In this document: positions 6,709 to 62,868 of the stretch, one piece after another | Layout: each line of letters starts with the position of its first letter | Position numbering within the stretch: position 1 is the stretch's first letter | Source: Octopus vulgaris | Taxonomy: Eukaryota | Direction of reading: 5' to 3' | Assembly (NCBI GenBank): GCA_951406725.2 | Contig: OX597829.1 | Span: 50,468,001-50,532,000 of the forward strand | DNA: 64,000 nt | The notes under the pieces: model-generated | Seen by the model: only the letters and a program-made list of their open reading frames with translations | Told to the model about the DNA's origin: nothing | Databases searched by the model: none | Made by a program: the position numbers and the translations under genes

Positions 6709-6831
6709 ATAATACTGTGGGGCCGCCACGTACAGTCACTCTCCCAGACCAGTACAGAAGTGTGTGCACTGGGAACCCCTTGTGTTTACATGCAATGTGA
6801 TGTCAGTATCAAAGAAGATATCGACAAACAG
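6709..6831 (+). CDS. DHRS3: DHRS3-like short-chain dehydrogenase/reductase, internal exon (first in window; phase 0/0)
   Basis: Acceptor ttttgtcttctgaacag, donor GTATTC; 123 nt = IILWGRHVQSLSQTSTEVCALGTPCVYMQCDVSIKEDIDKQ, resembling DHRS3 IVLWGR...CDV (Rossmann beta2-beta3). Confidence 0.9.
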
Positions 6832-15264: not shown

Positions 15265-16971
15265 ATTATGGCCAAAATAAAAGCAATGAATTGGCAGAAT
15301 TATTAGAGTCTTCATGTTCTGAGATCAAATGCCACAGTGTTTGATTTTGTCTTTCATATTTTTGAGACCAATAATGTTAAGTACCAATCCAGATTAGTAG
15401 ACTGGCAAAGTTATTAGCACCCAACAATGTTCTTGCAGTATTTGTTTCAAGGTCTGTACATTTCACTTTCAGTTGCTTCTGAAATTAATATTTCTTGTCA
15501 TTCTTCTGGGGTCTGTCGGTAAAGGGTAAAGGGTAAGGACCCCCTTCACTCATGACTGACCGTGGGATTGCACCTAGAATGTTCCCCTCCGAGGCACAAG
15601 TCCAGGTATGATTGTTTATGGAAGACCAGCAGTCACCCATGCATACCAGCCTCCCTTCTCCACGCCACTGATGTTATCCAAGAGAAAGGCAAAAGGTGAT
15701 ACAGCTTTGCACCTGTGACGTCGCAACTCATTTCTACAGATGAGTGAACTGGAGCAACGTGAAATAAAGTGTCTTGCTCAAGAACACAACACACAGTCCA
15801 GTCTGGGAATCAAACTCACTACCTCAGGTTTGTGAGCTTGATGCTCTAACCACTGTGCTATGTGCCTGAAATCAATATCTCCTGTCATTCTTCTGAGGTC
15901 AGTCAGTAAAAGGTAAAGGCTAAAGACCTCATTCAGTCATGACTGACCATGGGATTGCACCTAGAATGTTACCCTCCAAAGCACAAGTCCAGGCAAGGTT
16001 GTTTATGGAAGACCAGCAATCACCTATGCATACCAGCCTCCCCTCTCCACACTACCAATGTTATCCAAGGGAGACGCAGACCAGTACAGCTTGGCACCAG
16101 TGATGTCACAATTCATTTCTACAGAAATTCATTTCTACAAGAGCACAACACAGCCTGGTCTAGGAATTGAACTCACTACCTAATGATTATGAGCCTGATG
16201 CTCTAACCACTGAGCCATGTACCTGAAATTAACATTTCCTGTCATTCTTCTGGGGTCAGCCAGTAAAATGCCAGAAACGGTAGATTTTTGCTATATATGT
16301 TCCACCGCTTTATGTTCTCAGTTCACTTGTCATGGCACAGGAGCTGAGCTGCATTGGCCTTTGGATGTCATTGGTGGCACAGCGAAGGGAAATTTGCTGC
16401 ATGGGTTACTGCTGGGCTTCTTTGAGGGAAATGAAATCTTGCTGAAGCCTATATCATGGAGAGGAACTTCCCTGGTGCAGACACTCGGGAAGTTCCAGAC
16501 TGAAGATGATATAAACAGGTAACAGAATCAATCCTTATTGAGTACAGTGAATCATAATCACCACCACCACCCTCATCGCCAACATCATCACTACCACCAT
16601 CATCATCATCATCATCATCATCATCACCGCCGCCACCACCACCACCATCATCATCACCATCATCACCATCATCTTTATCATCATCATCATTTAACGTCCG
16701 TTGTCCTTGCCGGCATGGGTTGGATGATTTGACCAGGCCTAGCAAGCTGGAAGGCTGCACCAAACTCCAGTCTGATTTGGCCTGGTTTCCTACGGCTGGA
16801 TACCCTTCCTAATGCCAGTTATTCCAGAAGTGCAATGGGAGCTTTTACGTGCCACCAGCATGGGTGTCATTTGCATGACACCAGTATCTGTCATGACTGT
16901 GATTTTGCTCAGTTTGATGAGGTCATCTTCTCAAGTACAACACAATGCCAAAGGCTTCAGTCATTGTGACA

Positions 16972-17365
16972 TCTTTATATATAAAAGTGATGTTGTGTGC
17001 TGTCTGTCTCCTACGATTTAGATTCCTTACTCCCACATTTTGCGGTGCAGTTTAACCAAAAGCGGGTATCTTATAGTTGTGATTCATATCGAGCCCTTCT
17101 GGGTATTAGCGCGCGTCTACGATGAGTCTACGATTTAAAAAAAAATTTACCATCAATTTTTCCCATTTTTAATGCATTTTTGGCATATATAAGGGAAGCA
17201 ACTCTCTAAAAATTTATTATTAAATCTCAGAACGTAAAAAGCTACAGTAACACCCCACCCTTTGTGGTTTACTATATTGAGATGGCTATTATACTTTACA
17301 TCTCTAAAAAGGCTTATATAGTTATTTCCCTTACAAACCCGAGCAACGCCGGGCGATACTGCTAA
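16972..17365 (+). mobile_element. Non-autonomous Helitron, copy 1
   Basis: A|TC start, subterminal hairpin CCCGAGCAACGCCGGG, CTAA|T end. Confidence 0.8.
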
Positions 17366-17941
17366 TATATATATATATCATCATCATTTCAATGTCTGTT
17401 TTCCATGGGTTGAATTACTTGACAGGAGCTGGTAAGGCCAGTGGCCACACCAGGACCCATAGTCACTTTTGGCTTGGTTTCTACAACTGGATGTCCTTCC
17501 TAATGCCAATCACTTTACAGAGTGTACCAGGTGCTTTTTATATGGTACCAAATCCAGTGCTTTTTACGTGGCACCTTGGTTTTCCGATATCACTACTGTT
17601 GTGCTGGGTGAGTCTTCTTGAGTACAGCAATGGTCCCCATATTTCAGTCCTCTGTCGTCTCCATTGTAAGGCTCAACATTTTGAGATCAACCTTCAGTAT
17701 TCTGTCTTGTGTCTATCTGGGTCTCCCTTTTTGACAACTTCCCTCCACTTATTTAAATACTTGAGAGTAATATTAAGAATCTGAGAAAAAAAAAGGAAGG
17801 TGCTTTTTTTTTTATCATTTTTGCCTATATTTCTTTCCAAATATTCTATTTTAAAGCAGAAATTTTATTATGCCTGTTTGTTCCATTTTTGTTTCTTTCA
17901 TTTTTATTCTTTCTTCCTGCTGAAGCACAGTCTTGGATTTA

Positions 17942-18341
17942 TCTTTATATATAAAAGTGAGGTTGTGTGCTGTCTGTCTCCTACGATTTAGATTCCTAAC
18001 TACTCCCACATTTTGCGGTGCAGTTTAACCAAAACCGGGTATCTTATAGTCGTGATTCATATCGAGCCCTTCTGGGTATTAGTGTGCGTCTACGATGAGT
18101 CCACAATTTAAAAAAAAATTTACCATAATTTTTTTCCATTTTAATGCATTTTTTCGCTATTATATAAGGGAAGTAACTCTCTAAAAATGTCTACGATGAG
18201 TCAACGATTTAAAAAAAAATTTACCATCATTTTTTTTTCCATTTTTAATGCATTTTATTGCTATTTTTTGGCTATAACTCTCTAAATGCTTATATAGTTA
18301 TTTCCCTTACAAACCCGAGCAACGCCGGGCGATACTGCTAG
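17942..18341 (+). mobile_element. Non-autonomous Helitron, copy 2
   Basis: A|TC start, same hairpin, canonical CTAG|T end, internal tandem duplication. Confidence 0.88.
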
Positions 18342-21187: not shown

Positions 21188-21312
21188 CTTGTTAAAAACG
21201 AAGGGATTTTCTGGCGTCCATGTTTATAATAATTATAAATATTCTTTACATTTTGTTTGGTCTAATTCATGGTAAAAATGAAATTCTCATCTTGTGTGAA
21301 TTTCCGCTGCAG

Positions 21313-21453
21313 GCAAATGAAATAAAACGCCAACATGGAGCTGTTACCATTCTTGTGAACAATGCTGGATTATTGGCCCCGGGGAATTTTCTGGAAGTTG
21401 AAGACGAGAAAATTGAGCAGGTTTTCAAAGTTAACATATTGGCTCATTTTAGG
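21313..21453 (+). CDS. DHRS3: DHRS3-like SDR exon (phase 0/0)
   Basis: Acceptor tttccgctgcag, donor GTAAGT; 141 nt = ANEIKRQHGAVTILVNNAGLLAPGNFLEVEDEKIEQVFKVNILAHFR with SDR NNAG motif and helix-4 Asn. Confidence 0.95.
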
Positions 21454-22447
21454 GTAAGTTTTGTTTTTATACTTTGACTATTTTCTATCAGTGGACAGTG
21501 ACCTTGCTAGGTACCATCCTATAGTGACATAGCTAGAGTACCATTCTGACATATTTTATTTTACTTTTATTAGTCTAAAAGACAATTTCTTTTGAATAGA
21601 AGAACAAGGTTGCTATCAAATTATTTAATACAACTGCATGTTGCTGATGTCATAAGAATCATGAGGTAGTGAGTCCAGTTCCCAGACGAGGCTGCATGTT
21701 GTGTTCTTGAGCAAGACACTTTATTTCACATTGCTCCAGTCCACTCAGCTGTAGAAATGAGTTGCAACATTATTGGTGCAAAGCTGTATCGGCCCCTTTG
21801 CCTTTCCTTTGGATAACATCAGTGGCATGGAAAGGAGAGGCTGATTTACGTGCGTGCAACTGCTGGTCTTCCATGAAAAACCTTGCCCAGACTTGTGCCT
21901 CAGAGGGGAACTTTCTAGGTGCAATTTCTTTCTTCTCACAGTACATTATTCAGTCTTGGTCAAAATATGAATTTCAAGTCAAGTTGGTTTATCTGAAGTG
22001 GCTGGAAACTTTTTCACAGCCATTTTTGTGGTCATTTTGCATCGTCCCTTCTCATTCAGAACCCCTTCTACAAAATATAATGATTCGGTATAGAAATGAC
22101 TCCAACAGGGCCAATGTTTCATCAGCAAAAAAACACAATGCGAAACATCCATTTATAAGTCAGCAATTAGTAGAAATTTATAATAGTTTCAAGTGGCCGA
22201 AGACTTTTGCATGGAACTGTATTTGCATTCAATAAAAAAGTAAATTGATCTCCCATCAGCATCAATGTCATATGTTCCAATTGTTCAATCAGAAAAAAAA
22301 CTTCTTACTCGTTGAATTAGCATGGAGTATTCCACAGACATGGGTACTCTTAAGGTAATCCATGAGTGGAATATTTGGGACATCACTGTCATCATCATCA
22401 TCATCGTTGATGATGTCCGCTTTCCATGCTAGCATGGTTGGACGATT

Positions 22448-30132: not shown

Positions 30133-30737
30133 GTTTAACGGCCGTCCTCCATGCTAGCATGGGTTGGACGGTTCGACCGGGGATCTGGGAAGCCAGAAGG
30201 TTGCACCAGGCTCCAGTCTTATCTGGCAATGTTTCTACAGCTGGATGCCCTTCTTAACGCCAACCACTCCGTGAGTGTAGTGGGTGCTTTTTACGTGCCA
30301 CCCGCACAGGTGCCAGGCGAGGCTGGCAACGGCCACGGTCGGATTGGTGCATTTTAAGTGCCACCAGCACAGAAGCCAGTCGAAGCGGCACTGGCATCGG
30401 CCACAATTTGGATGGTGCTTTTTATGTGCCACCGGCACGGAAGCCAGTCGAGGCGGCGCTGGCATCGGCCAAGATTCGGATAGTGCTTTTTACGTACCAC
30501 CAGTTCAGGGGTCCTGGCATCTGCCAGGTGCCAGCCATAGGATTGATTCAATTTCGATTCCGATTTCGATTTTCACTTGCCCCAACAGGTCTTCGCAAGC
30601 AAAGGGGGGTTGGCATGGGTGCCTGTCGTCGGATGAGGTTCAATATCGACTTCGCTTGCCTCAACAGGTCTTTGTGTGTCCAAGGGAGGAAAGGCATGCA
30701 TAAGTGGGCTGGACTCACTTGTCCTGCCTGGTCTTCT
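30104..30737 (-). mobile_element. Family C retroposon with (GAT)n tail (RTE-type 3' end); other copies at 2135-2382, 5385-5641, 11295-11521, 58915-59169 (+) and 22390-23105, 32288-32586, 39008-39548 (-)
   Basis: (CAT)n-CGTTTAACG..CCATGCTAGCATGGGTTGG..GGATGCCCTTCCTAACGCCAACC with internal GGTGCTTTTTACGTGCCACC repeats. Confidence 0.85.
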
Positions 30738-30837
30738 CACGTACAGCATATTTCCAGAAGACCAGGCTGGACAAGTGAGTCCAGCCCACTTATGCATGCC
30801 TTTCCTCCCTTGGACACACAAAGACCTGTTGAGGCAA
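30656..30837. repeat. Near-perfect hairpin: 82-bp stem (1 mismatch), 18-nt loop
   Basis: 30656-30737 is the reverse complement of 30756-30837 except for one T:T mismatch. Confidence 0.97.
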
Positions 30838-31023: not shown

Positions 31024-33193
31024 TATATATATATGTGTGTGTGTGTATATATATATATATTTATAAATTTTCTTTTATTCTTTTACATGTTTCAGTCATT
31101 TGGCTGTAGCCATGCTGGAGCACCGCCTTAAAGGGTTTTAGTCAAAGAAATCGATCCCAGGACTTATTCTTTGTAAGCCTAGTACTTATTCTATTGGGTC
31201 TCTTTGCCAAACTACTTAGTGGCGGGGGACAAACGCAGACACAAACATAGACACATAAATACATATGCATCTATATAAAGCAAATATGTAACAAGATTGT
31301 CCAGGTATCAGTGCATTACAGCTATTTCAAGGCCATTCAAGAATTTGGATCTGGAGATCTCCATTTCCAGCGACTTCAAAGACCACCTCCCAGTGGTATC
31401 AGGCGAGCTGGCAGAAACGTTAGCATGCTGGGCGAAATGCGTAGCCGTATTTCGTCTGCCATTAGGTGTTCTGAGTTCAAATTCCGCCGAGGTCGACTTT
31501 GCCTTTCATCCTTTCGGGGTCGATAAATTAAGTACCAGTTACGCACTGGGGTAGATGTGATCGATTTAATCCCTTTGTGTGTCCTTGTTTGTCCCCTCTA
31601 TGTTTAGCCCCTTGTGGGTAGTAAAGAAATATATATTATAATACATTATAATATAACAAGATATTTCAAAGCCCCTTGTGGGTAGTAAAGAAATAGGTAT
31701 CAGGTTTCAACGAAGAGCTCTTGACTACAACAAGATGACCAAAGTTTTTTTTTCCAAGGTCTGGGGTCTCCTGCCCCTAAGCCCTAGACCATCACCTAAT
31801 CACCCTTACCCGTCTTGTTGCTTAACAACAACAGCCATTTCAAGTGGTTCCATTTAATCGATCAGTGCAAATATATCAATTTGAAATAAACCTCTCTCCT
31901 CGGACACATAAGACCGTATAGATTTCCAACATACAGGATACTCCATTATAATTTTTTTAGCAAATTTTTCATCAGAACTAGAGAATAAAAGAATTACATG
32001 CTTATTGCTATTATTGTAGCAGAATTAATTTAGGGAAAAATACCTAAATCCTTCTATAATTTAGAGCTGCAGAAGAAAATAATGGGGGTCAAGAAAGAGG
32101 AATGGTGATATGGCTACATTCATCTTTATCTTTCTCACATTCAAAAGACCCAATGCAGCAAGTAGTCTACACCCCCTTAGAATCAAAACCATTGGGAATT
32201 GACAGTTAAGTTCTTGTTGTTGGTGATAAATTAATTAATGTCAGATTCTCTTCACTACTCCTATTTTACTGTGACCATAAAATCAGCCATCATCATCATC
32301 ATTTAGCGTCCGTTCTCCATGCTAGCATGGGTTGGATGGTTCAACTGGGGTCTGTGAAGCCAAAAGGCTGCATCAGGCCCAGTCTGATCTGGCAGGGTTT
32401 CAATGGCTGGATGCCCTTCCTAATGCCAACCACTCCGCGAGTGTAGTGGGTGCTTTTTACGTGCCAGCCGCACAGGAGCCAGACGGAGCTGGCAAACGGC
32501 CACGAACGGAAGGTGCTTTTACGTGCCACCGGCACGGGGGCCAGGCGAGACTGGCAATGGCCATGAACGGATGGTGCTTTTTACGTATCTACATATCTAC
32601 ATAAAAGAATATGTCTTAGAAGATGCTAGCAACATAATAATATATAGATACGGGGTGATAACCAGAAAGAGGAAGGGAAAGGGTAACTTAACTTATTATG
32701 ATTATCAACTAAAAGGGGCCGAAAATGGAAAAGAAAGGGGGTCACAATGAGATCTAAGTGTGGAAATTAGAAGTACAGGGGTAGGTGGGATGTGCATCCA
32801 AACTTAGCAAAATTTATATATTAAGATATATTAAATATTAAAAGATTTAAGGACCATGTAAGAGAAAAGGGATAGATAAATTAACCTAAGCCATAAAAGT
32901 GGGGGCTTTTATATAAAATAGAAACCTCATAATGTTTCTTCCTAGCATAATGTTAAGGTGGTCATGATAAAACTATTCAACCCATAATTAAATTCAGATA
33001 TCATCCGAGTAGGGGTATACATTTTCTATTGAATCAAGACCAAAGATTAAGGGCCTAAAAAATAAGATAAACATTTCTATAACATTTCTATAACCTATTT
33101 AAAAACCATGGAAAAATATATTTATTTAAAAATTACCGACATTATGAAAAAATCTGAAAGGGAATAAGAAGGTATGAAAATATACATAAAAAT

Positions 33194-33242
<49 letters not shown>

Positions 33243-33247
<5 letters not shown>

Positions 33248-33653
33248 GTAAAGTATAGAAGCCATCTTATCATGGCTAACCACATTGGGGAGGGGTGTTA
33301 CTGTAGCTTTATAGCCCCAAGAGATCTTCGTCTCTAGCTGGCTTTAGACACAATATCTGTGTCCTTGGAGTATTTGCAAAGGGAGGCCATCCCATCCTCG
33401 CAAGCCTGAGTGATACGCTCGAACTAGTTTCGGGATTGTTGTCCCTCGTCAACGGGCGGTAACCACCAGGTAGCGATGAAAGAGAAGGCTCCTTTGCAAA
33501 TAGATATAAGTTTTTCTAATGGCGTCTGCCACTGGGGCTATAAAGCTACAGTAACACCCCCTCCCCAATGTGGTTAGCCATGATAAGATGGCTTCTATAC
33601 TTTACATTATCGAGCGATTACTGTTTCAATCTCATTCTGAGATTTAATAACGC
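33243..33653. mobile_element. Fold-back element with ~76-bp near-perfect inverted repeats, inserted in (TA)n
   Basis: 33243-33319 is the reverse complement of 33533-33610 (one G indel); inner IR TATTTGCAAAGG / CCTTTGCAAATA; (TA)n on both flanks. Confidence 0.9.
33416..33458 (-). ncRNA. Minimal type I hammerhead ribozyme-like motif (C3U variant)
   Basis: CGCCCG-TTGACGA-GGGA/CAACAA/TCCC-GAAA-CTAG-TT-CGAGCG: stem I 5 of 6 pairs, perfect stem II, palindromic ACTAGT stem III, GUU cleavage triplet. Confidence 0.7.
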
Positions 33654-35149
33654 TATATATATATATAGGTGCAATTATAAATATAAATACCATATTGTAT
33701 TATATCATAACATGATTACTATAGAGAAAAGTTACAAACCCCTTCACAATCTATAGAAATTACACCAGTATATATATGAGGGTATATAGATATCCAAAAT
33801 ACAATTATATAATATAAGATAAAAGAATAGATAAAATAAAATAAAATAAAAATGAATAAAAGGAAAAAAATATTTGTATAAAATTTCAATAAAGTATTTA
33901 TAGAATGTAAAAATAGAAATAACGATAAAAATTTTACATTTTGAATGCCATAAAATATATACTGGATATAAAAAGAGATGAAAGATAAAAAAATAAGGAT
34001 AAGTCATGGTATTCATAATAAAAGCTAATTAAAAAATAAATAAAATACGATGAAAATACCATTGGTATTGGTTTTATAAAATATTTCCAGATATGTGTAG
34101 AATCATAGCAGTTCTTGGGGGATATATAATATACTTAAGGGAGTCATGGGCTCTGGTAATCAATTGTAAATATACCTATTACGACTGATAGGGAAGAAAG
34201 TCTTAGAACCGAAGGGGAAATTGTGTAATCTAAGCATAGAGGGAATGCAGATTAAACAGGTAGGGGTTATAAAAGGGCAGAAAGGTTAGCACGTCGGGCT
34301 AAATGCTTAGCAGTATTTCAGCTGTCGTTACGTTCCAAGTTCAAATTCCGCCGATGTCAACTTTGCCTTTCATCCTTTTGGGGTCGATAAATTAAGTACC
34401 ACTTACGCACTGGGGTCGATGTAACCAACTTAAGCCCTTTGTCTGTCCTTGTTTGTCCCCTCTATGTTTAGCCCCCTGTGGGCAATAAAGAAATAAATAT
34501 TATGTATAATTCTATACAATAGAGGGTATGTTAGGAAAAACATGGCACCCCAGATAATTTCCTATTTCTTTACTGCCCACAAGAGGAGACTAACAAGGAT
34601 AGACAAATGGATTAAGTCAATTATATCGACCCCAGTGCGTAACTGTTACTTATTTAATTGACCTTGAAAGGATGAAAGGCAAAGTCGACCTCAGCGGAAT
34701 TTGAACTCAGAATGTAGTGGCAGACGAAATACCTATTTCTTTACTACCCACAAGGGGCTACACACAGAGGGGACTAACAAGGACAGACAAATGGATTCAG
34801 TTGATTATATCAACTCCAGTGCGTAACTGGTACTTATTTAATCGACCCTGAAAGGATGAAAGGCAAAGTTGACCTCGGCAGAATTTGAACTCAGAACGTA
34901 GTGGCAGATGAAATACAGCTTAGCATTTCGCCCGGCATGCTAACGTTTCTGCCAACTCACCGCCTTATAATTTCTGCCACTAAATCATTGTATGATATGT
35001 ATAATATTATTTGTTTCTAAAATATTTGAAGGTAACTTCGAGCCATGAAGACAATATCAGACTGACTTGGTGCCTCAACTTAAGTACCTAATTCAACTGA
35101 ATCATAATTCTTTATATATATATAACTTAGATTGGTCCAGGCTATGTCT

Positions 35150-37414: not shown

Positions 37415-37659
37415 ACCGTGAAAACGTTTTTACCTGAGATGCAGCAGTTAGAACATGGCCACATTGTGACGATTGGATCTTGTCTTGGAATCTCAGGAAT
37501 GGATGGTGTTTCATCCTATAGCAGTTCCAAGTTTGGCGTGACTTCTTTTGCTGATTCTCTGGCAGCCATGTTAGACAGTGCTACCTACAAAGGCGTTGAA
37601 TCCACTGCCGTTTATCCCTTCCAGATTTCAAACAGTATGTTCGCTGGCTGTGAAATTAG
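37415..37659 (+). CDS. DHRS3: DHRS3-like SDR catalytic exon (phase 0/2)
   Basis: Acceptor tttctgatttatag, donor GTTTGT; 245 nt = TVKTFLPEMQQLEHGHIVTIGSCLG...YSSSKF...VYPFQISNSMFAGCEI(R); catalytic Ser and YxxxK. Confidence 0.95.
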
Positions 37660-37773
37660 GTTTGTTTTTTTTTATTATGTTTTATTGCATTTTCTTCATT
37701 TCTTTCCTTCCTGTGTGTGTGTGCATGTGTCTGCATATGTGTGTGTGTTTGTGTATGTAATTGTGCATATATA

Positions 37774-45520: not shown

Positions 45521-45949
45521 ACTCTGAGCATATATATACATATGTATGTAACATAATGCAATAAAGTATCTCCTTGATCTGTTGTGGTTAAGCATCCAGT
45601 TGCACTTGATAAATTCAGTGCAGAATTCCCAAACAGCCACAGTAGTGAAACATACATAAGGAACATAAGATATAATTGCAATTTCTCCTACATTTGCTCT
45701 TTATATCATAGCTAGTGATACTATTAAGTATAGTAGTTATCTAAGTACTATACTGAAAGCAGATTGGATAATTAGAATCTCTATGAGGCTCTAAAACCAG
45801 CTGCAGCAGTTGCTCCCATCTACTCCCTAGTGGTTTCTACTCCACCTCCTGAACCACTTCCATTCCTGCCCATACGATTTTAACAAGTCACCCCCCCCCC
45901 CCCCCCGCTTTCCATGCCTTCAGTAGAGGCACGCCCTAAAAATGGCTTC

Positions 45950-46518
45950 TGGTTACAAATATCTTGGGTCATACATATTATCTGAAAAAGATCTTCTAAC
46001 TAGAAAGGGTATGGCCTGGTCAGCCTGTAATGATATGCATAAGATCTGGTCATCAAATCTAAGTAGAGATTTCAAACTTGAAATCTTCAAAGCCACAGTC
46101 GAACCAATTCTACTATATGGCTCAGAAACCTGGACGTTATCAAAGAAGCTTGAGAGGCGGTTGGATGGAACTTACACTCGCCTCCTTATGAGAGCTCAAA
46201 ATCTCTCGTGGAAGCGCCATCCAACCAAAATGCAAATATATGGGAAACTACCACCTGTGTCATCTCTTGTGAAAGGGAAGAGAGTCCAGTTTGCTGGACA
46301 TTGTTGTAGAGCTGAAAAAGAAGTAATTTCTACTCTTCTCCTCTGGAAGCCATCTACTCGCAATACCAGAGGGCGCACACTCTCCTACACTGATGTAATC
46401 TCCAGGGATACAGGCATCCAGCAACATGACCTCCATAATGCTATGATGGACCGTGAAGTCTGGCGTAACATAGTATATTCCATTGTCTCGACCACAGTCG
46501 AACAATGATGATGATGAT
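45950..46518 (+). mobile_element. 5'-truncated RTE-clade LINE with uninterrupted C-terminal frame and (GAT)n tail
   Basis: ORF 45942-46508: YKYLGS...ATVEPILLYGSETWTL...LDGTYTRLLM...FAGHC...MMDREVWR. Confidence 0.9.
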
Positions 46519-47693: not shown

Positions 47694-48478
47694 CACAACT
47701 TATATAGTAAAAAAATCAATAGAAATAAAAAAATAAAAAAGAGTTACCATGAAGTTGTTGTGTGGTGTGGAAACTGCGTTGTTTCAGACAGTCTTCCTTC
47801 AGGAAAAAGTTTAACAGAAAGAAATTAATGGGAGACACAGTAGAGTTTTATATCTTCTAACTTAAAAAAAAAAAAAAACTGGCTGCAATTGACAAGGAGC
47901 ACAGGAATACGTGAGCTTTGTACGTGAACAAGAAATGGTAGGAGAAACATAGAAAGAAGAAAATTAGGTAAAAATAATGGAATGAGAAGAAAGAGAAATG
48001 GAACGAGAGGAAGAAAATTGAGAGTGAGTTTAAGAGGAAAGACGACGAAGGAGGGGTGTTGAAGGATGACAAAGGGTTTAATGAAGTATGAGGAGGTGTA
48101 GGACTAAAAGGAAAAACATTTTATCTCATTAAACTCTTTCTCATCCTTCAACTCTCCTCCTTCTTCATTTTTTCCTTTCATCTCACTTCTCTATTTGCCT
48201 GTTTCTTGTCATTCCATTATTCTTTCCTTCTTCTTTCTCACAGTTTTTCTTGCCCCTTCTTGTTCACATACGAAGCTCACATGTTACTGTGTTCCCCATC
48301 AGTTGCAGCCAGTTTCTTTTTTTAACTTAAACGATGTAAAACTCTGCTGTCTCTCACTAATTTCTCTCCTCTCAACCTATCACCTGAAGAAGGACTGTCT
48401 GAAACGAAGGATTTTCCACTCCTCGCAGTGAGCTCACTGTATTCTTTTTAATTGATTTTACTATGAATGTTTGTGTGT
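47694..48478. repeat. Diverged inverted repeat IR3: arms ~47694-48084 and ~48127-48478, spacer ~40 bp
   Basis: e.g. GTTTCAGACAGTC / GACTGTCTGAAAC, AAACTGGCTGCAA / TTGCAGCCAGTTT, TTGAAGGATGA / TCATCCTTCAA. Confidence 0.85.
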
Positions 48479-49190
48479 GTGTAGTCTAAAAATGGGCACC
48501 AGCCAAATGGTGATGCAGTCCATCTCCCTCTCTCCTTCCAAATGTCATGGTTTTTGATACCTCACTGGGTCAAGGGGCTGTGTTTACGCAATATTACAGA
48601 AGAACCTAAAGCAATTTAGCACAATTAACTAAATCAAGAAGCTTAATTTCATTGCTTCAGAATGTATTTTCCCAAAAAACTTAAAACAGGATAAATTTTT
48701 TTTATTTGTTTCAGGTTTCCTCGTTTGTTTCCTCCTGTGGATGAAAAGTATGTTGCTGTAAAGACAGTAGAAGCAGTTCTTACCAATACCAAATCCCTCA
48801 TGATTCCACGCCTTATCGGTTATGTAATCATATTAAAGACGTGAGTGACTTAATGATTGTTGAATCTTTCTAAACGGTCAACCCATTGGGTTTTCTGATC
48901 TTAAACATGGAACTTTGGAGATGAGATGATTAGGTGCTGCTATTTGGATGCAGAGGATTTGGCATGGCTGGATATTGAATTGGTTTTGGTGAGAGTATAC
49001 TTTGGCACTGGAGACACACACACTTGCACACACATACACACATGCTTATGCACAGAGAAGTACAGATAGAAAGAATGAGAGAGAGAGAGAGAGAGTGACG
49101 TTGCGATTTATTAAGTGAAAACTTCTCTTCTACACATAGAGAGAAATATGCATCACCATTTGGCTGGTGCCCATTTTCAGACTACACACT

Positions 49191-56095: not shown

Positions 56096-56128
<33 letters not shown>

Positions 56129-56133
<5 letters not shown>

Positions 56134-56277
56134 CCGTGTCAGGCAGAAGAACGAAATGTTCCCAAGATAAGAGAGTCTTTCTAATCTAATGTTGTGGTTG
56201 AGCTGTTTATTATTTATTATTATTACTATTATTAGTAGTATTAGTATTGTCCCTTTGATCCTCGGTCGAAAATTTGC

Positions 56278-56313
<36 letters not shown>

Positions 56314-56704
56314 TTACTATTTTCAGCTTCGCCTTGTATTGCATATTATTTCTCCATACAGGGGTTTTTTCAATGGCGGCCCATTTTCGCGGGGTTCCAC
56401 TATTTACCTTCTCTCTCTCCCTCTTTTACGTTGTCTGCCATCCCCCCTCTTCCTTTGCTAAGAGCATTTTTAAGCCAGCCCGTCATATTCCCGTGTCAGG
56501 CAGAAGAACGAAATGTTCCCAAGATAAGAGAGTCTTTCTAATCTAATGTTGTGGTTGAGCTGTTTATTATTTATTATTATTACTATTATTAGTAGTATTA
56601 GTATTGTCCCTTTGATCCTCGGTCGAAAATTTGCTTATTATTATTATTATTATTATTACTATTTTCAGCTTCGCCTTGTATTGCATATTATTTCTCCATA
56701 CAGG

Positions 56705-56748
<44 letters not shown>

Positions 56749-57012
56749 CAATGGCGGCCCATTTTCGCGGGGTTCCACTATTTACCTTCTCTCTCTCCCT
56801 CTTTTACGTTGTCTGCCATCCCCCCTCTTCCTTTGCTAAGAGCATTTTTAAGCCAGCCCGTCATATTCCCGTGTCAGGCAGAAGAACGAAATGTTCCCAA
56901 GATAAGAGAGTCTTTCTAATCTAATGTTGTGGTTGAGCTGTTTATTATTTATTATTATTACTATTATTAGTAGTATTAGTATTGTCCCTTTGATCCTCGG
57001 TCGAAAATTTGC

Positions 57013-57043
<31 letters not shown>

Positions 57044-57374
57044 TTTCAGCTTCGCCTTGTATTGCATATTATTTCTCCATACAGGGGTTTTTTTTTTTTT
57101 TTTTTTTTTTCAATGGCGGCCCATTTTCGCGGGGTTCCACTATTTACCTTCTCTCTCTCCCTCTTTTACGTTGTCTGCCATCCCCCCTCTTCCTTTGCTA
57201 AGAGCATTTTTAAGCCAGCCCGTCATATTCCCGTGTCAGGCAGAAGAACGAAATGTTCCCAAGATAAGAGAGTCTTTCTAATCTAATGTTGTGGTTGAGC
57301 TGTTTATTATTTATTATTATTACTATTATTAGTAGTATTAGTATTGTCCCTTTGATCCTCGGTCGAAAATTTGC

Positions 57375-57410
<36 letters not shown>

Positions 57411-57459
57411 TTACTATTTTCAGCTTCGCCTTGTATTGCATATTATTTCTCCATACAGG

Positions 57460-57491
<32 letters not shown>

Positions 57492-57754
57492 CAATGGCGG
57501 CCCATTTTCGCGGGGTTCCACTATTTACCTTCTCTCTCTCCCTCTTTTACGTTGTCTGCCATCCCCCTCTTCCTTTGCTAAGAGCATTTTTAAGCCAGCC
57601 CGTCATATTCCCGTGTCAGGCAGAAGAACGAAATGTTCCCAAGATAAGAGAGTCTTTCTAATCTAATGTTGTGGTTGAGCTGTTTATTATTTATTATTAT
57701 TACTATTATTAGTAGTATTAGTATTGTCCCTTTGATCCTCGGTCGAAAATTTGC

Positions 57755-57790
<36 letters not shown>

Positions 57791-58110
57791 TTACTATTTT
57801 CAGCTTCGCCTTGTATTGCATATTATTTCTCCATACAGGGGTTTTTTCAATGGCGGCCCATTTTCGCGGGGTTCCACTATTTACCTTCTCTCTCTCCCTC
57901 TTTTACGTTGTCTGCCATCCCCCTCTTCCTTTGCTAAGAGCATTTTTAAGCCAGCCCGTCATATTCCCGTGTCAGGCAGAAGAACGAAATGTTCCCAAGA
58001 TAAGAGAGTCTTTCTAATCTAATGTTGTGGTTGAGCTGTTTATTATTTATTATTATTACTATTATTAGTAGTATTAGTATTGTCCCTTTGATCCTCGGTC
58101 GAAAATTTGC

Positions 58111-58146
<36 letters not shown>

Positions 58147-58680
58147 TTACTATTTTCAGCTTCGCCTTGTATTGCATATTATTTCTCCATACAGGGGTTT
58201 TTTCAATGGCGGCCCATTTTCGCGGGGTTCCACTATTTACCTTCTCTCTCTCCCTCTTTTACGTTGTCTGCCATCCCCCTCTTCCTTTGCTAAGAGCATT
58301 TTTAAGCCAGCCCGTCATATTCCCGTGTCAGGCAGAAGAACGAAATGTTCCCAAGATAAGAGAGTCTTTCTAATCTAATGTTGTGGTTGAGCTGTTTATT
58401 ATTTATTATTATTACTATTATTAGTAGTATTAGTATTGTCCCTTTGATCCTCGGTCGAAAATTTGCTTATTATTATTATTATTATTATTACTATTTTCAG
58501 CTTCGCCTTGTATTGCATATTATTTCTCCATACAGGGGTTTTTTTTTTTTTTTTTTTTCAATGGCGGCCCATTTTCGCGGGGTTCCACTATTTACCTTCT
58601 CTCTCTCCCTCTTTTACGTTGTCTGCCATCCCCCTCTTCCTTTGCTAAGAGCATTTTTAAGCCAGCCCGTCATATTCCCG
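56129..58680. repeat. Tandem array of seven ~356-380-bp units
   Basis: Units start at TATTCCCGTGTCAGG (56129, 56486, 56864, 57226, 57606, 57962, 58318); nearly identical apart from homopolymer/microsatellite lengths. Confidence 0.97.
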
Positions 58681-62768: not shown

Positions 62769-62868
62769 GCTTATGCCCTTTGAAGTGACCACAAAGTTAA
62801 ACAAGTTCTTTGGTGTTTCAACAGCAATGGAAAAATGCAAGAAACTTGGAAATTCTACATCAAGCTGA
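62769..62868 (+). CDS. DHRS3: DHRS3-like SDR last coding exon
   Basis: Acceptor tttctcaattaatag; phase 2 completes ACG; LMPFEVTTKLNKFFGVSTAMEKCKKLGNSTSS*, typical SDR16C C-terminus (LP...F.G...M); stop TGA at 62866-62868. Confidence 0.88.

Follow-up and report, generated by a model that had tools for sequence, protein, structure and literature searches.

A ribozyme-bearing fold-back insertion in an Octopus vulgaris intron is most likely a non-LTR retrozyme copy with Penelope-type ends

A 411-bp insert at positions 33243-33653 was examined within a 64,000-nucleotide stretch of Octopus vulgaris DNA (the window; GCA_951406725.2, contig OX597829.1, positions 50,468,001 to 50,532,000). This insert is a 5'-trimmed copy of a hammerhead-bearing unit joined to an inverted fragment of the unit's 3' end and is very probably a non-LTR retrozyme that a Penelope-like element's enzyme inserted into a TA microsatellite. 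As judged from genomic and contig sequences, the copies most likely represent a new octopus family within the known class of non-LTR retrozymes, with cleavage being a prediction, and the fold-back shape of the insert is likely a by-product of Penelope-type integration. No report of an octopus, cephalopod or MITE-like retrozyme was found in the literature covered, with most subscription papers and Repbase/Dfam lying outside its scope.

The insert is located between a (TA)24 tract (33198-33245) and a (TA)7 tract (33654-33667), which form the left and right parts of the target. An earlier reading made from the sequence alone had described an element of about 410 bp in (TA)n, and its coordinates and letters were exact. 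As the last bases of the (TA)24 tract overlap the end of the element, the target duplication of the main copy is unreadable. The main copy occupies 33243-33534 on the minus strand and contains 292 nt of an approximately 357-nt unit, without the 26-nt linker at the 5' end and without the tail at the 3' end. An inverted, 5'-truncated second copy of 121 nt (33533-33653, plus strand) is made up of 78 nt from the 3' end of the unit together with the tail and overlaps the main copy by 2 nt (33533-33534). The 3' end of the main copy (33243-33319, minus strand) is also the left arm of an inverted repeat, with 33533-33610 forming the right arm. These arms of 77 and 78 bp are identical at 77 of 78 positions, the exception being a G indel, in keeping with the near-perfect repeats of about 76 bp described previously, but the repeat is not terminal on the right, where 43 bp (33611-33653) lie outside the arm. 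These 43 nt represent a tail that is present at one end only (plus strand), and 33611-33648 is colinear with the unit in other copies. The insert is noncoding, with a GC content of 45% and a longest Met-initiated ORF of 33 aa. No RT or GIY-YIG ORF was present in any frame of the insert, and no RT or GIY-YIG endonuclease was detected by inspection among the 46 long frames of the window. The minus strand of the whole insert was predicted to fold into a rod of -227 kcal/mol. An inner inverted repeat, also reported from the sequence alone, was found to be the base of a 131-nt rod-like stem with the ribozyme at its tip (33370-33500, minus strand; -52.1 kcal/mol, z = -4.5), and none of 200 shuffles was as stable as this rod.

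The proposed hammerhead motif at the centre of the insert was recovered with both a covariance model and a descriptor. The Rfam model HH9 (RF02275) matched 33400-33470 over the whole model with 31.2 bits, which is below the gathering score of 52, and with E values of 4.6e-6 for the 411 bases and 7e-4 for the window. This match takes in the internal loop of stem I and the letters of loop 2; differences from HH9 include, besides the score, a stem III reduced to a palindrome and the presence of U3 and U17. The other Rfam matches of the window (102 of 103) were below the gathering score, and those inspected were microsatellite or fold-back sequences. A descriptor requiring the two core boxes, stem II and 5 of the 6 stem I pairs detected one site in the window versus 0.04 sites per shuffled window (100 shuffles) and none in 5000 shuffles of the element.

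The type I hammerhead extends over 33405-33470 on the minus strand. The core, U3-U-G-A-C-G8-A, starts with U3 at 33452 and has G8 at 33447. Stem I (33458-33453/33421-33416) contains one C.A mismatch and belongs to an extended stem I with an internal loop, stem II (33445-33442/33435-33432) has 4 bp and a 6-nt loop, and the stem III region is the palindrome ACUAGU. Cleavage on the minus strand is predicted to occur after GUU, between 33422 and 33421. Predicted pair probabilities were 0.78 to 1.0 for stems I and II and 0.0 for the A15.1-U16.1 pair of the monomer, and two copies of the hammerhead were predicted to co-fold through the palindrome. The ribozyme is a type I hammerhead of the canonical form, its stem III being palindromic, and its predicted cleavage likely requires a dimer. 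Type I architecture, a palindromic stem III and a link to Penelope-like elements and retrozymes had all been recognized in the sequence-only reading and were retained, but the minimal form named there was replaced by the canonical metazoan form, which fits better. The canonical metazoan form has a helix I of 6 bp, a helix II of 4 bp, loop contacts, and a helix III of 1-2 bp with a palindromic loop and works in dimers; the minimal Penelope hammerhead has a helix II of 7-8 bp, a helix I of 4-5 bp, a loop 1 that is ill defined, and one additional base ahead of stem II (PMC4209133). The octopus motif has a helix II of 4 bp, a helix I of 6 bp with a distal stem, and no extra base. Its one-pair stem III with a palindromic tetraloop resembles that of axolotl HHR_Amex1, which cleaves well only as a dimer (PMC7229834).

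Other copies of the element were examined in contigs from sequencing runs. Runs holding at least half of the sampled words (20 of the 24 listed) came from 10 studies; none of the listed runs holding element words was an RNA run, with one, X4, being guessed to be RNA. Four of these runs (X1, X2, X4 and X6), all in the form of contigs, were aligned to 33243-33760. The joints, loose ends, substitution rows and contig pieces described below are those listed, and a further 2, 287, 24 and 2862, respectively, may include the junction of this copy or a C3 variant. The numbers of fitting records in the four runs (7, 1369, 1435 and 50), spread across all identity bands, indicated a many-copy, diversified family. 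Summed contig depth, which is not a copy number, was far higher over the element than over the 3' flank, and the fall in depth towards 33530 mixes truncation with subfamily divergence. An exact-motif scan detected 0 loci in metagenome contigs and 0 in viral contigs; the one locus detected in a prokaryote genome was discarded as a chance 21-mer with unrelated flanks.

The arrangement of the unit was apparent from a small number of contigs. X1 record 2 (387 nt) starts with 20 loose letters, follows the minus strand from 33534 to 33292 with 1 difference, then reads 33561 to 33648 on the plus strand with 0 differences and ends with 36 further letters, giving 1 difference over 331 aligned letters. 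Because 33561-33610 mirrors the left arm, this contig represents a copy in which the hammerhead, the 3' end and the tail run in one direction. X4 record 22 has 36 letters past the tail, and the 30 that were printed comprise 6 new letters, the 20 loose letters of X1 (as the reverse complement) and the main copy's opening 4 letters. Both X1 and X6 have loose ends at 33534 that run into the 26-nt linker, and six X6 contigs share this neighbour. The resulting period of 357 nt (20 + 243 + 88 + 6) derives from the one 387-nt contig, whose last 36 letters are unprinted, together with the loose ends, and would read the same from a DNA array as from an RNA circle. The difference of 30 between 387 and 357 is the overlap expected if X1 record 2 closes in a graph of 31-letter words, and these lengths suggest that the contig does close on itself. 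X4 record 20 (356 nt) was rejected as a representative of the unit, as only 95 nt fit the stretch. On the evidence of these assembled sequences, the family unit is noncoding, linear, arranged head to tail and about 357 nt in length, with the 26-nt linker joining the tail to the start. The head-to-tail linkage was observed as a joint in contigs, and the window itself carries a monomer.

Inverted joints were also present in the contigs. Of the 15 joints listed, 12 lead out of the main copy and into the inverted arm; no two of these use the same pair of positions, and none lies at the point found in this copy. Each listed joint was represented by one contig per run, 4 of the 12 had at least 30 letters on the short side, and one listed joint was found in both DNA-type runs. 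If the ends are the same as here, the 12 joints imply arms of 0-71 nt, and 3 of them keep the whole hammerhead. The location of a joint within 1 nt of the predicted cut (33422) was not beyond chance for 12 joints over approximately 290 nt. In four X2 contigs, the unit's own sequence preceded the right arm rather than the junction of this copy (loose ends at 33532). Contig comparison thus indicated that the inverted repeat is specific to this insertion and is absent from the family unit. The inversion point lies elsewhere in other copies, and so the present one is a monomer trimmed at its 5' end and joined to an inverted 121-bp fragment that bears the tail.

These joints bear on the interpretation originally proposed for the insert, namely, that it belongs to a family resembling MITEs, in which the inverted termini are fixed and a ribozyme lies at the centre, mobilized by a DNA transposase or by a route combining MITE and retrozyme features. 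MITEs are short, noncoding elements with a fold-back shape and a TA-rich target. The octopus insert has all of these properties, including the rod fold of the whole copy within TA repeats, but its inverted repeats do not form both termini and are not constant across the family. The 43 bp outside the repeat at one end, the other copies that are linear at the junction or inverted at 12 other points (joints listed), and the second copy at 17.2 kb, which has no inverted repeat and has a 9-10-bp duplication, render this interpretation extremely improbable. The MITE reading, in which repeats would be terminal and shared between copies, was largely refuted by this variation in termini, and the hybrid with its own inverted termini was not supported either.

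The second copy in the window (17217-17301, plus strand) is an older insertion of the family consisting of 16 nt of inverted tail end followed by 67 nt of the unit's 3' end without the tail. The 67-nt part is 81% identical. An exact 9-nt duplication (17204 and 17302) flanks this fragment, increasing to 10 nt with the loose end of X1 (33246). The fragment lies within a host repeat (16971-17366), a related copy of which (17941-18341) is without the insert. Both repeats end in a GC hairpin and CTAG/CTAA, and we take them to be Helitron-like on the basis of these features. The junctions of the fragment recur as loose ends in all four runs, and hence the host repeat probably multiplied the retrozyme fragment, as far as can be read from the sequences.

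The two insertions were also considered in relation to a satellite origin, whereby monomers would spread at the DNA level by unequal exchange or template switching, the fold-back would be a repair accident and the hammerhead would be a relic. Such an origin would accommodate a commonest listed core, U3.G8 with GUU, that may not cut, and a satellite route after birth from a Penelope end has been discussed (10.64898/2026.07.22.740005). DNA slippage, however, does not predict that the ends of two independent inserts should fall at almost identical pairs of points, one to each side of the tail, with one insert showing a target duplication; furthermore, a second stem III palindrome in a sibling suggests selection on the RNA fold. 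A satellite origin was considered very unlikely.

The family was compared with known retrozymes. Non-LTR retrozymes have units of 150-450 bp (350-390 bp in mussel), type I hammerheads and a GC content below 50% and are self-paired (Cervera and de la Pena 2020, PMC7229834). The octopus unit shares with the metazoan retrozymes of that report the size range, the head-to-tail joint, the GC content, the self-paired RNA and the canonical type I hammerhead. The target duplication of retrozymes is longer than 4 bp when present, and that of the 17.2-kb fragment is 9-10 bp, the (TA)n context of the main copy making any duplication there unreadable. Unlike these retrozymes, dispersed octopus copies carry inversions and a tail as well as a U3.G8 core with GUU; octopus is not named, and the word 'inverted' is absent, in the main text of PMC7229834.

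The ends of the insert resembled those produced by Penelope-like elements. According to Craig et al. (2021, PMC8557442), Penelope-like insertions are 5' truncated, often have an inverted 5'-truncated copy next to the 5' end, carry a 30-40-bp tail at either end and are biased towards (TA)n, as are the Naiad and Hydra families of octopus. A Penelope-like enzyme cuts AT-rich DNA, and cDNA starts at two RNA-internal sites downstream of the hammerhead, with the tail being the stretch between these two RT start sites; in vitro, insertion was not prevented by mutations in the ribozyme (Frangieh et al. 2024, PMC11167929). The octopus insert similarly has an inverted 5'-truncated copy beside the main copy, a one-sided tail, a (TA)n target and a hammerhead upstream of the tail, with the order being cut site, 179 nt, first end, 38-43-nt tail and second end. 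It differs from Penelope-like elements in the absence of an RT or GIY-YIG ORF and in having a 38-43-nt tail located 179 nt after the predicted cut.

As every end feature is of the Penelope type, the insert could instead derive from an autonomous Penelope-like element, of which it would be the 5'-truncated end (pseudo-LTR), inserted in the usual inverted fashion, and would then not be a retrozyme in its own right. Sibling families retain the last 150-175 nt plus the tail, with divergence at 33392 and 33418, the 255 letters ahead of 33584 in one contig are unrelated, and truncated Penelope-like copies with opposite-strand hammerheads 100-700 bp apart have been reported (PMC4209133), all of which would be compatible with a pseudo-LTR. 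In the octopus unit, however, just 26 nt separate the tail from the next start, too few to hold an ORF, no ORF was found in any frame, and the 4-bp helix II and the 6-bp helix I with an internal loop are unlike those of the minimal Penelope hammerhead. A pseudo-LTR origin was considered unlikely. Ten short motifs used to look for an autonomous partner gave 0 true matches in the published Naiad, Chlamys and Hydra consensus files, which included the first part only of Hydra-1_Obim, with octopus Penelope/Poseidon and Neptune being outside this scope; one 10-mer match in an algal element of these files was dismissed as chance.

A retrozyme that depends on a Penelope-like element would be in line with a preprint by Li, Clavereau and Pollet (2026, 10.64898/2026.07.22.740005), who argue that the retrozymes of animals derive from Penelope elements and are non-autonomous. 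The octopus copies resemble the vertebrate retrozymes derived from Penelope pseudo-LTRs in that study, being monomeric offspring of tandem units with a proposed dependence on Penelope. The vertebrate case is built on co-occurrence and pseudo-LTR homology, and the terms 'tail' and 'mollus' are absent from the available text. Frog retrozymes were reported there to be excluded from introns, whereas the octopus copy is intronic and antisense to its host gene.

The sequence-only reading had attributed C3U and the stem I mismatch to defects of this copy and had forecast a C3 core for the family. Neither proposal was upheld. The motif is covered by X1 record 2 and X4 record 19, in which 33394 is the sole difference from the window; because U3, the C.A mismatch and GUU are the same in both contigs, these are subfamily letters. 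U3 was present in other copies, and no C3 variant was found among the substitution rows listed. The letter at 33394 is private to this copy, with nearly all of the contig depth reading T (plus strand), and a T at this position would, by eye, bring back a base pair in the rod beneath the ribozyme. The small number of differences from other copies makes the insertion look young, and on this sequence comparison it probably is.

The commonest core among the rows listed was U3.G8 with GUU. A U3.G8 pair and a GUU site lower the cleavage rate, and no measured rate for a C3U hammerhead was found in the literature covered; this core may be nearly inactive. Eight of nine frog retrozyme dimers were without cleavage in a recent test (10.64898/2026.07.22.740005). 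A G8A substitution was common, being detected in 26, 28 and 4 contigs of X2, X6 and X4, representing 16%, 24% and 61% of summed depth, and in 0 contigs of X1, with these counts being taken from the substitution rows listed. Together with U3, G8A would give U3-A8, which is a natural, active covariant (PMC3088659). The G8A site is a CpG, and decay could also produce this substitution. Another variant, X4 record 18, has a different, longer palindrome at the stem III position and a GUC site, as read by eye, and is partly supported by 1-2 contigs of X2 and by loose ends that agree at 69%.

A possible route for formation of the insert can be outlined. Tandem copies would be transcribed (from the minus strand here), and the multimer would be split into monomers by hammerheads acting in pairs; these monomers might become circular. 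AT-rich DNA would be nicked by a reverse transcriptase/endonuclease of the Penelope type, cDNA synthesis would begin at two set positions within the RNA, one to each side of the tail, and two early-stopped cDNAs would be joined back to back, generating a main copy with no tail and an inverted copy with the tail. As the main copy extends 113 nt beyond the predicted cut, we infer that its template was uncut or re-joined RNA.

The enzymes that move animal retrozymes are still a matter of hypothesis, with Penelope-like elements being described as 'a strong candidate' (PMC7229834). In the octopus family, a unit of retrozyme size bears the tail and the inversions typical of Penelope, and the cis signal would lie in the last ~80 nt plus the tail. 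A more ambitious interpretation, which is conceivable but doubtful, is that a large octopus retrozyme family with the full Penelope signature in its dispersed copies, comprising a pair of fixed ends about a tail, random inversions and a target duplication of ~10 bp, constitutes genomic proof that retrozymes are moved by Penelope enzymes, that the young U3.G8/GUU subfamily spreads while barely cutting, and that the U3-A8 and GUC siblings cut and make a 357-nt circle. If this were true, the family would offer a natural experiment on whether the elements need a ribozyme at all. The natural core variants (U3.G8, likely U3-A8 and the GUC sibling) bear on the role of the hammerhead, which is an open question (PMC11167929, PMC8557442). 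The remaining interest lies in the tail-and-inversion signature on a retrozyme and in the success of a subfamily with a doubtful catalytic core. For annotation, a warning is that such insertions resemble MITEs.

Five exon matches to short-chain dehydrogenase/reductase 3 of Octopus sinensis were detected on the plus strand of the window (6709-6831, 21310-21471, 37415-37663, 48713-48841 and 62770-62865), of which four were 100% identical, in agreement with the cephalopod origin assumed in the sequence-only reading. The insert is situated in the ~16-kb intron after the second match (21.5-37.4 kb), with the hammerhead antisense to the gene. A lone antisense intronic copy is unlikely to cut the host transcript, and a single copy is probably without effect on the host gene. 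The microsatellites are flanked by AT-rich sequences at 32588-33197 (GC 0.30) and 33668-34275 (GC 0.25), for which no other copy was found within the window and stops were present in all 12 frames. The right flank is itself repeated in the sequencing-run contigs, at low depth, and the two flanks are possibly one older element split by the microsatellite.

Several other features were observed in the window. Tandem repeats with a ~360-370-bp period and an identity of 92-96% occupy 56128-58680, and the hammerhead descriptor detected nothing within this array. A 193-aa stop-free frame at 45927-46508 (plus strand) gave no Pfam match and resembled, by eye, the C-terminal end of a non-LTR retrotransposon protein. 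A degenerate self-complementary stretch of 660 bp (71%), in which a purine-rich arm faces a pyrimidine-rich arm, is located at 47764-48422. Finally, a symmetric fold-back of 182 bp (30656-30837; 92% self-complementary), present as a single copy in the window, looks like a plain MITE or hairpin element.
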